The notes below the pieces were generated by a model. It saw nothing but the letters and a program-made list of their open reading frames with translations. It did not search any database and had not been told where the DNA came from. The translations under genes and the position numbers were made by a program. Below are positions 20,029 to 20,929 of a stretch of 32,000 nucleotides of DNA, one piece after another (within the stretch, counting starts at the first letter, position 1; the number at the start of each line of letters is the position of its first letter). This DNA is from Staphylothermus hellenicus DSM 12710. Lineage in GTDB: Archaea > Thermoproteota > Thermoprotei_A > Sulfolobales > Desulfurococcaceae. Where the stretch lies: assembly GCF_000092465.1 (NCBI RefSeq), contig NC_014205.1, positions 630,001 through 662,000 of the forward strand, read 5' to 3'.

Positions 20029-20436
20029 CTAGATAAAGCTTAAAAGAGTAAGGATTCCTTTAATTCTCTGTTCCAGCCTTTCCATTCCAGGAGGCAACCC
20101 TTTTTCCAACAAGTTTTCCGCATCCGCCACTAAGGTTTGTAAGTGCTGTTTTGCTCGTTTAGGTGAAACAGGTTTTTCTGCTTGAAGCTTTCGACCACCC
20201 TCCATGAAGCCTTCAGCATAATACCAATCCTTGAACCATGTAAACCCTCTAATTAGAAACTTGTATCCAAGCCTTGTAAAAGCAGGCGGGATCCCTACTT
20301 CTAATTCCCTCATCGTTACCGGATCCCATTCGTACTCAATAAATACCCTATCACCTGGGCCAGTATAAATTGATAATAGATCTAATACTGCATCCTCTAC
20401 TAAACCATCAAATATTACCCCACAAGCAGACGACAA
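20029..20436 (-). CDS. Hypothetical protein (135 codons from TTG); possibly the 3' part of a gene interrupted by the upstream GC-rich element
   Basis: Protein-like sequence (..FIEYEWDPVTMRELEVGIPPAFTRLGYKFLIRGFTWFKDWYYAEGFMEGG..). The only available start is TTG 20436, which has no SD and lies inside the terminal stem of the structured element. Same frame as ORF 20488-20694. Confidence 0.5.
   Translation of the reverse strand: MSSACGVIFDGLVEDAVLDLLSIYTGPGDRVFIEYEWDPVTMRELEVGIPPAFTRLGYKFLIRGFTWFKDWYYAEGFMEGGRKLQAEKPVSPKRAKQHLQTLVADAENLLEKGLPPGMERLEQRIKGILTLLSFI
20404..20417 (-). repeat. Direct repeat copy 2 (TAATATTTGATGGT on minus strand)
   Basis: 12/14 identical to 20665-20678. The copies are 261 nt apart. 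Similarity resumes at GAGGAT after a 6-nt indel. Confidence 0.7.
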
Positions 20437-20670
20437 GATTGTATGGGTCTCGATCCAAGGCCTATATAGGGGAGGACGCCGTTCTGGCTAGCCGTAGCTT
20501 TTGTTGCATTTGTTGCTTTTGCTACAGCTAGCCTTCCAGCCTCTGGTTTCATTGGCTGGCTTTCGGGGGGGAACGGAGTGCTCCCCACATCTTCGGATAT
20601 ATCTAAACCCGCGCCCATTCGGGCTTAGCTTACCCCACATATCGAGCGCGGGATCCAAATCCTCATCATC
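20429..20670 (-). ncRNA. Unclassified GC-rich structured RNA-like element (~240 nt)
   Basis: Sharp AT-to-GC composition switch. Perfect 13-bp helix 20486-20498/20521-20533 (one G-U on minus). 16-position helix 20469-20484/20571-20586 (14 WC pairs). 6-bp CCAGCC/GGCTGG hairpin 20536-20559. 7-bp all-GC helix 20608-20614/20646-20652. Tetraloop hairpin 20587-20600. Candidate terminal stem 20661-20670/20429-20438. TATA box about 26 nt upstream. Confidence 0.55.
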
Positions 20671-20678
20671 AAAGATTA
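20665..20678 (-). repeat. Direct repeat copy 1 (TAATCTTTGATGAT on minus strand)
   Basis: See 20404-20417. Lies immediately 5' of, and partly within, the GC-rich element. Confidence 0.7.
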
Positions 20679-20680
20679 TT

Positions 20681-20929
20681 CTAGATAAACACATATATAA
20701 ATGCTACGAAAGTAACGCTATATGTTTCAGCCCTAAACACCTTTGCATGGAACAGCGAGCTCCTACAATTATCTTTTCCAACGAATACTTCTATGTTGCT
20801 TTCTTCAGGAAACCTGCCTTTCCAAACTTTTCCCTTCAACGAAAAATTATATATGGAGAACCCTTGCTTGAAAAGCTCGATAAAACCAAGAAGATCTTCT
20901 GTTTTTCCTGTATACATAGATAAACACAC
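20681..20929 (-). CDS. Hypothetical small ORF (78-82 codons) upstream of the element; coding status uncertain
   Basis: GTG 20929 or ATG 20917 (AGGTG 9 nt upstream of the ATG). TTTATAAA box at 20958-20965. The hydrophobic tail TFVAFIYVFI is translation of the TATA region, which suggests a truncated or rearranged gene. Confidence 0.35.
   Translation of the reverse strand: MCLSMYTGKTEDLLGFIELFKQGFSIYNFSLKGKVWKGRFPEESNIEVFVGKDNCRSSLFHAKVFRAETYSVTFVAFIYVFI
20682..20693 (-). repeat. 12-nt exact direct repeat TGTGTTTATCTA (minus strand), copy 2
   Basis: Identical to 20917-20928, 235 nt away. Encodes the shared (M/V)CLS N-terminus of ORFs 20929 and 20694. Confidence 0.7.
20694..20701 (-). promoter_or_regulatory. 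TATA-box-like TTTATATA upstream of the structured element
   Basis: Minus-strand TTTATATA whose centre is ~26-27 nt upstream of the first nucleotide of the candidate terminal stem (20670), the canonical archaeal TATA-to-TSS distance. It also lies within the codons of ORF 20681-20929. Confidence 0.4.
20917..20928 (-). repeat. 12-nt exact direct repeat TGTGTTTATCTA (minus strand), copy 1
   Basis: See 20682-20693. Confidence 0.7.

Follow-up and report, generated by a model that had tools for sequence, protein, structure and literature searches.

Does a stretch of minus-strand DNA with two short open reading frames (ORFs) hold two genes or one, and if one, what divides it? The question arises in a window of 32,000 nucleotides from Staphylothermus hellenicus, the whole stretch of DNA analysed here and the reference for all positions given. 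In it an ORF of 82 aa lies upstream of an ORF of 135 aa (20029-20436). A first-pass annotation of the window had treated the upstream ORF as a gene of its own and had placed an in-frame block, inserted or duplicated, between two diverged copies of one gene segment. Judged by their homologues, the two ORFs are instead the remains of one conserved archaeal gene of function unknown (DUF1122), which is split in S. hellenicus by an insert of 250 bp.

Two open reading frames that match one DUF1122 gene

Both ORFs belong to the Pfam family PF06557. The upstream ORF corresponds to profile positions 3-45 (E=4.8e-8) and the downstream ORF to profile positions 63-174 (E=2.5e-48). Because the matches occupy successive ranges of the same profile, we read the ORFs as halves of a single DUF1122 gene, with the following parts:

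20731-20917, minus strand: DUF1122 5' part, codons 1-62 and the first base of the Gly63 codon (PF06557 match; aligns with orthologue N-termini)
20029-20480, minus strand: DUF1122 3' part, from the last two bases of the Gly63 codon through the stop (PF06557 match; homologue alignment)

The whole gene runs from an ATG at 20917 to a stop at 20029 and encodes 212 aa once positions 20481-20730 are removed. A search with the joined sequence returned 47 homologues, nearly all of them uninterrupted and about 200-250 aa long, and their alignment contains the unbroken motif ...LFHxKVFxGRPPxYRPWxExH...SSACGV. In the window this motif is divided, the upstream frame ending in ...LFHAKVFR and the downstream frame reading RPPLYRPWIETHTILSSACGV. 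Since the two frames differ, the length of the interruption must be 1 modulo 3, and a block of 261 nt therefore cannot be the unit. Gly63 is invariant across 29 aligned family members, and the next residue, Arg64, is nearly invariant; 28 homologues of some 200-250 aa read through without interruption.

The 5' frame reads 16 codons into the insert, as far as a TAG at 20683-20681, which gives the 78/82-aa ORF; the 78-aa N-terminal product is a called gene in Logan assemblies. The 3' frame is open from 20487, and its only start is the TTG at 20436, that of the annotated 135-aa ORF. This start falls 3' of the conserved GRPPLYRPWIETH motif, so that the 135-aa ORF lacks it. By the evidence of the alignments, the two annotated 'genes' are one interrupted DUF1122 gene, and the annotation is corrected to that effect. 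One family member has a solved structure, the functionally uncharacterised Aquifex aq_1966 (PDB 2ARH).

A distant DUF1122 homologue on JGI metagenome contigs (L010-L012, about 1319-1971) is called as ORFs of 43 aa and 156 aa. A second insertion, considered for this shorter homologue (P0042), was rejected: the interruption is a simple frameshift near an A5 run (GAGAAAAAGG), identical in three samples.

The empty site and the boundaries of the insert

The neighbouring proteins of the window cluster with proteins of Staphylothermus marinus F1, and the closest DUF1122 protein (P0001, 212 aa) falls in the same 90% cluster as S. marinus F1 ABN69243.1. S. marinus F1 has an intact gene of 212 aa, and so do five environmental contigs, which encode P0001, in a gene order identical to that of the window (amidohydrolase, MarC, cation efflux, hypothetical, DUF1122, Bmp, ABC). 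In the DNA alignment the orthologue has TTTAGGGGGCGTC where the window has TTTAGGG, 250 nt and GGCGTCC, which defines the following feature:

20481-20730, minus strand: inserted element of exactly 250 bp, CTGAAAC...CCAGAAC, absent from the S. marinus-like orthologue

Three G residues of a G5 run precede the insert and two follow it, and the Gly63 codon is cut behind its first base. Alignment to the orthologue reveals no target duplication, base loss or microhomology at the junctions. As the insert starts and ends with C between G residues (G|C...C|G), its placement is unique and its boundaries cannot slide. No other indel in the 14.5 kb that align collinearly (about 88% identity) exceeds 28 nt. 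Deletion of 20481-20730 in silico produces an ORF of 639 nt and 212 aa, equal in length to the orthologue, which retains Gly63-Arg64 and all 36 columns conserved at ≥90%. The insert was found in a single lineage and is absent from the sister species S. marinus; the 221 unaligned nt at the start of an S. marinus-like contig (L015) bear no relation to it.

These boundaries bear on the model of the first-pass annotation, in which an 87-codon in-frame block lies between diverged copies, as a duplication or an attachment-site (att) scar, within a 136-aa gene that starts at ATG 20694. The strings, their spacing and the shared frame are as it gave them. On the minus strand TAATCTTTGATGAT (20678-20665) and TAATATTTGATGGT (20417-20404) lie 261 nt apart, and GAGGAT comes next in both, with a 6-nt indel before it in the second copy; ORFs 20488-20694 and 20029-20436 share one frame, with one TAG and 17 sense codons between them. 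The two strings fall into different parts of the locus:

20665-20678, minus strand: copy 1 of the proposed repeat, in the insert, with a likeness to copy 2 that is at chance level
20404-20417, minus strand: copy 2 of the proposed repeat, DUF1122 coding sequence (VIFDG, a conserved motif in the homologue alignment)

The idea that these are two copies of a gene segment fails, the 12/14 repeat being at chance level. A local alignment of the two regions was equalled or beaten by 90 of 2000 shuffles, and the window contains 83 same-strand pairs of 14-mers that agree at at least 12 of 14 positions at a spacing of 100-400 nt (about 0.8 expected per 300 nt). Homology gives an interruption of 250 nt at 20730-20481, not a multiple of 3, in place of the 261-nt block. 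The 136-aa gene is an artefact, the real gene being the one of 212 aa that runs from ATG 20917 to 20029, and the upstream ORF, described as a separate gene with an operon-like overlap, is its N-terminal part. The proposed fusion, MCLSRIIFDG..., would be without 77 N-terminal residues that are conserved in all homologues. A comparison of orthologue starts with the TTG, which had been suggested as a check, also goes against the proposed gene model, though not as foreseen: the orthologues run about 77 aa further upstream, an extension encoded by the upstream ORF and 15 of the 17 sense codons. Nor is an att-type scar likely, for the junctions G|C...C|G have neither a shared core nor duplicated bases. 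The orthologue alignment refutes the duplication/att model, to which we give almost no credence. Of the proposal of an insertion or duplication within a protein gene, the insertion stands, by virtue of the empty site in the orthologues, and the in-frame duplication falls.

Two related origins were considered and rejected. An integrase or att scar and an IS110-type core exchange find no bases common to both junctions. For an inverted or direct duplication of flanking gene sequence, alignments were not significant, except for the complementarity at the 3' junction and the 12-nt TGTGTTTATCTA match described below.

Composition and predicted folding of the insert

The insert has a GC content of 47% overall, with 27% in nt 1-60 and 53% in nt 61-250; the genome has about 37%. 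This 190-nt core is the largest GC-rich island of the window. The minus (gene-sense) strand of the insert is predicted to fold at -110.7 kcal/mol (z = -4.6), or at -126.5 kcal/mol with the flanks included (z = -5.2), and the plus strand at -94.8 kcal/mol (z = -3.3). There are no terminal inverted repeats, as the one end, CTGAAAC..., is no inverted copy of the other, ...CCAGAAC. The first-pass annotation had likewise reported none, which holds at the true ends; it had judged at the wrong ends, however, and an imperfect subterminal inverted repeat does exist. A gapped alignment of this repeat matches at 18/22 positions and was equalled or bettered in 85 of 5000 shuffles. The features within the insert are:

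20699-20717, no strand assigned: imperfect subterminal inverted repeat, left arm of 19 nt, which lies 13 nt in from the left end and is 79% complementary to 20493-20511
20493-20511, no strand assigned: subterminal inverted repeat, right arm, which lies 12 nt in from the right end and overlaps three tandem 9-nt units (20494-20526)
20694-20701, minus strand: TTTATATA, candidate TATA box in the AT-rich left part, read from the sequence by its consensus match
20590-20677, minus strand: long hairpin in minimum-free-energy folds, with a 10-bp G+C stem (20652-20643 with 20617-20608) and a G.A-rich base that includes AUGAUGA
20486-20533, minus strand: 13-bp hairpin ending 5 nt from the right end, with arms 20521-20533 and 20486-20498 (repeat pair, 92% complementary; folds)
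20571-20585, minus strand: segment that can pair (14/16) with 20484-20470, which covers the final 4 nt of the insert and the initial 12 nt of the DUF1122 3' part (15-nt pair, 87% complementary)

The candidate TATA box was recognised by the archaeal TATA-box consensus. Transcription from it, if it is used, would begin near 20670 and proceed into the GC-rich core. The minimum-free-energy fold predicts a three-way junction made of a small hairpin, the 13-bp hairpin and a closing helix. This closing helix is the pairing of 20571-20585 and spans the right junction. The duplex of 20571-20585 with 20470-20484 has an energy of -24.7 kcal/mol, equalled or bettered in 11 of 1000 dinucleotide shuffles (p ~0.011); the complementarity could be due to chance, be a structural closing helix or be a trace of target recognition. 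The 12 nt TGTGTTTATCTA occur identically in the AT-rich left part of the insert (20682-20693) and in the DUF1122 start-codon region (20917-20928), and 7 of 500 shuffles reach such a match.

The six frames of the insert, searched as a chimeric query against 5.8 billion proteins, gave no match at E up to 1, and no insert frame matched Pfam or NCBIfam. Rfam returned nothing at the gathering threshold over the window and nothing at E up to 10 over 20200-20900, and ARAGORN found no tRNA.

Copy number and assembly breaks

A mobile element may be expected to leave further copies, and we found none in the 32-kb window, in the other loci compared or in scans of public collections, which weighs against a transposable element. 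Exact-pattern scans of GTDB representative genomes, JGI metagenomes and IMG/VR yielded no copy; they seemingly did not cover the source genome and miss diverged copies. The GTDB scan, made with a 21-mer of the core, gave only a chance match in Clostridia, and the IMG/VR scans one 18-mer match without extension, which we count as chance. With BLASTN, the insert found nothing among phage and plasmid records beyond low-complexity chance matches. Together, these empty searches are weak negatives.

The assemblies of three independent sequencing runs of this organism (SRR3925462, SRR3925463 and SRR019220) break at identical bases inside the insert. Contigs L007 and L008 stop at 20607 and contigs L001 and L002 resume at 20561, which leaves 45 nt uncovered; the contigs of these runs are otherwise tens of kb long. 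The breaks delimit one further stretch:

20532-20636, no strand assigned: stretch probably present more than once or heterogeneous (assembly break points; about 105 nt if k=31)

The breaks at 20607 and 20561 suggest that an exact repeat of about 105 nt (20636-20532) is present elsewhere in the DNA, a size that assumes a 31-mer assembly graph. Alternatively, they may reflect two nearby polymorphisms or heterogeneity of the culture. The far end of the S. hellenicus assembly contig is a low-complexity AT-rich repeat.

A candidate IS607/IS605-type non-autonomous element

What kind of DNA entered the gene? With a probability of about 0.55, we read the insert as a 250-bp non-autonomous transposable element that split the DUF1122 gene and that, by analogy, resembles the ~260-nt MITEs (miniature inverted-repeat transposable elements) of S. 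marinus, which are related to insertion sequences (IS) of the IS607 family (TnpB-type). The absence of a duplication, the subterminal inverted repeats and the G-run site lead to this reading as a non-autonomous element of the IS607/IS605 superfamily. More broadly, and again by analogy, the insert is most probably a member of the known class of small IS607/IS605-type non-autonomous elements. The MITE- or PATE-like element that the first-pass annotation had listed among its possibilities is thus the best reading, in view of the missing target duplication and the hairpins.

The genus provides a precedent. S. marinus carries five IS607-family elements, its only IS elements, together with 14 copies of a repeat of ~260 nt with inverted repeats, called MITEs; these repeats resemble the DNA upstream of four IS607-family ORFs, and two ORFs are disrupted by them (PMC2678158). 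Pseudogenes number 69 in S. hellenicus and 40 in S. marinus (PMC3236042). The insert shares with the MITEs of S. marinus F1 (Anderson et al. 2009, PMC2678158) the genus, a similar length (250 nt; ~260 nt in the MITEs), inverted repeats and the disruption of an ORF. In contrast, its core 21-mer was not among the GTDB representative genomes searched, so that the elements, likened here by description, would have to have diverged if they are related.

Members of the IS607 family have no terminal inverted repeats and make no target duplication, and their imperfect inverted repeats lie near the ends, not at them (PMC6188088). They insert at GG, with (G)GG preferred (PMC6188088), and a clostridial member has TGGG as its target and TnpB-adjacent motif and an RNA scaffold that ends in ...UCGG (PMC10690162). 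The insert conforms to this description in lacking terminal inverted repeats and duplication and in having imperfect inverted repeats near its ends. Its site, within GGGGG and with AGGG as the left flank, agrees with the family targets GG, (G)GG or TGGG, and its right junction, ...AACGG, with the family right end, ...CGG. It differs in that the window has no transposase or TnpB gene, where a full IS607-family element has a serine TnpA and TnpB, and that the number of G residues at the junctions does not suit a matched GG core.

Other families of small elements offer partial likenesses. Palindrome-associated elements derived from IS200/IS605 (PATEs) insert cleanly 3' of a fixed motif of 4-5 nt, without duplication or terminal repeats, and carry subterminal hairpins. 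The insert is similarly clean and has its 13-bp stem 5 nt from the right end; unlike a PATE, it has only a weak AT-rich hairpin at the left end. A classical MITE, moved by cut-and-paste with a DDE transposase, differs from the insert, which has neither terminal inverted repeats nor a target-site duplication. The in-frame palindromic inserts of Rickettsia (RPE-type) differ as well, since the insert, at 250 nt, is not a multiple of 3 and the frame of exon 1 stops after 16 codons.

In the proposed course of events, the element would have entered the G5 run within the Gly63 codon with target bases neither duplicated nor deleted, presumably with a transposase of the IS200/IS605/IS607 superfamily acting in trans. 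The GC-rich core would perhaps correspond to a transposase-binding or guide-RNA-like end of the parent element. The insertion would be recent and would have knocked out DUF1122, leaving a probable pseudogene that encodes the 78-aa N-terminal fragment and at best the 135-aa C-terminal fragment without the conserved motif.

The state of the split gene bears on this account. Against the S. marinus-like orthologue, the rejoined gene has a ratio of nonsynonymous to synonymous substitution rates (dN/dS) of 0.12 (5' part 0.10; 3' part 0.115), within the range of four neighbouring genes (0.06-0.14). A relative-rate count with five outgroups gave 6 replacements specific to S. hellenicus and 5 specific to S. 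marinus, and the synonymous divergence (dS) at the split of the two species is 0.73. Exons without decay imply either that the insertion is young relative to the species split or that the gene still works, through removal of the insert at the RNA level.

Several observations, besides the missing second copy, weigh against a transposable element of the S. marinus type. The undecayed exons (dN/dS 0.12; 6 replacements against 5) demand a recent event. The core, with 53% GC and a fold at z of about -5 that is stronger on the sense strand, resembles a functional RNA more than a typical MITE. The tie to the S. marinus MITEs is an analogy drawn from their published description. Lastly, a serine-recombinase exchange at a matched GG core predicts 7 G residues, or an empty site with 3 G that is out of frame, and the site has 5: each side of the insert has GG, and the total of 5 is that of the empty site. 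This count weakens the assignment to IS607 without excluding it. Either the chemistry differs, as in the single-strand Y1 type of IS200/IS605, or mismatched cores were involved; mismatched-core products have been seen experimentally (PMC10690162).

Alternative explanations for the insert

The undecayed exons, the restoration of Gly63, the sense-strand fold and the 14/16 complementarity at the 3' junction leave room for removal of the insert from the mRNA. As an intron, the insert would be transcribed through and removed from the RNA exactly at 20731|20480, and the ligated exons would encode a functional 212-aa DUF1122 protein; removal could proceed at a relaxed motif, through the splicing endonuclease with RtcB, or in an unknown, IStron-like way. 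In favour of an intron, the reading frame and the invariant Gly63-Arg64 come back when exactly the insert is taken out. Neither exon is damaged (dN/dS 0.10-0.12), nor has the S. hellenicus branch accumulated excess change, and of the two strands the sense strand has the more stable fold (-110.7 kcal/mol; the other, -94.8 kcal/mol). That fold joins the end of exon 1 to positions +19..+28 of exon 2 and lets an internal segment pair over the 3' junction. Furthermore, S. hellenicus splices a 36-nt intron from its cbf5 mRNA, with a manually adjusted motif (PMC2738675). Like the insert, the cbf5 intron interrupts a protein gene, in Desulfurococcales including S. hellenicus, and its exact removal restores the ORF (Watanabe 2002; Yokobori 2009, PMC2738675). 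However, the archaeal mRNA introns known, all in cbf5, measure 16-44 nt, show bulge-helix-bulge (BHB) motifs and are conserved across two orders, whereas the insert is 250 nt long, six times longer than any of them, has no BHB motif and occurs in one species (PMC2738675). A BHB motif comprises two 3-nt bulges flanking a 4-bp helix, with cleavage after the second bulge base (PMC2738675). We applied this cleavage rule to all site pairs within 20770-20690 and 20520-20440, and no pair gave an in-frame product that keeps Gly63-Arg64. No canonical or near-canonical BHB motif yields an in-frame product, so that this exhaustive scan bears out the first-pass annotation, which had found no convincing motif. 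Placed exactly at the junction, the motif forms 3 of the 4 pairs of its central helix and 5 pairs of its outer helix, 3 of these being G.U, and lacks an inner helix. The predicted fold puts the 3' junction inside a perfect 6-bp helix instead of a bulge. The ends are unlike those of group I or group II introns, Rfam gave nothing at E up to 10, and a sequence confined to one lineage offers no supporting conservation or covariation. On balance we hold an intron to be distinctly improbable. Transposons that are spliced out of mRNA are known (PMC10690162), and the IStrons of Clostridioides and Clostridium, a group I intron joined to an IS605/IS607 element, are like the insert in being a transposon of this superfamily within a gene, with DNA boundaries at the points that restore the gene (PMC10690162). 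They differ in carrying a recognisable group I ribozyme of several hundred nt, whereas the insert matches no ribozyme family and its ends are without the U/G hallmarks. A mobile element that is also removed from the mRNA, as an archaeal counterpart of IStrons or as a new class of large mRNA intron without canonical BHB, would keep DUF1122 functional; we consider it a long shot. Included in that long shot is a variant in which the GC-rich core would be an orphan guide RNA of the TnpB type that ends at the right boundary, with the adjoining DUF1122 sequence as its guide.

A one-off insertion unrelated to transposition is unlikely too, if easier to entertain. DNA captured at a break or by template switching could here be a small structured-RNA gene with its own TATA box, or an extrachromosomal fragment. 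The AT-rich part with TTTATATA, followed some 25 nt later by the GC-rich structured core, has the look of a promoter and an RNA gene, no other full copy appeared in the searches made, and the assembly break would agree with one donor locus that has the central ~105 nt in common. The junctions, free of microhomology and duplication, agree with such a capture, but break repair seldom gives a clean insertion in which every target base is kept. The symmetric subterminal inverted repeats and the G-run target are traits of a transposon, and the core matches no Rfam family.

Two further candidates were rejected. Introns of group I, group II or spliceosomal type are excluded by the absence of their characteristic ends, the insert starting with CUGAA and ending with GAAC. 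Programmed ribosomal bypass lacks matching take-off and landing codons, and the gap is, to our knowledge, five times the maximum for such bypass.

Implications

As a transposon insertion, the locus would be a tidy, datable case of a disrupted gene in an archaeal hyperthermophile whose mobilome is very small. If the reading is true, the little-studied association of MITEs and IS607 elements in Staphylothermus extends to the sister species. A full-length copy from a single event, together with its empty site, is useful for defining ends, target motif and transposition chemistry, and the number of G residues at the junctions argues against a simple exchange of matched GG cores. Were the insert instead removed from the RNA, DUF1122 would join a single other archaeal protein gene in having an intron, and its intron would be the first large one.

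Other observations in the window

Beside DUF1122, a divergent hypothetical gene (21005-21721, plus strand) has 238 aa in the ORF list and 209 aa in the S. marinus-like relatives (L015, 3217-3846). The intergenic, promoter-bearing region that it shares with DUF1122 contains a 28-nt indel. Further away, tandem and slightly overlapping UPF0047 (PF01894) paralogues occupy 25365-25751 and 25720-26115 on the plus strand. On the minus strand, some 85 nt rich in GC (13584-13671), which lie between a ferredoxin-like ORF and ORF 13678-14577, contain box C/D-like motifs, with GAUGA near the 5' end and CUGA near the 3' end. This stretch has only sub-threshold Rfam matches to archaeal C/D-box small RNAs (sRNAs; sR21 at 14.7 bits, snoPyro_CD and sR45) and a fold at z -2.1, and is possibly an unannotated C/D sRNA.

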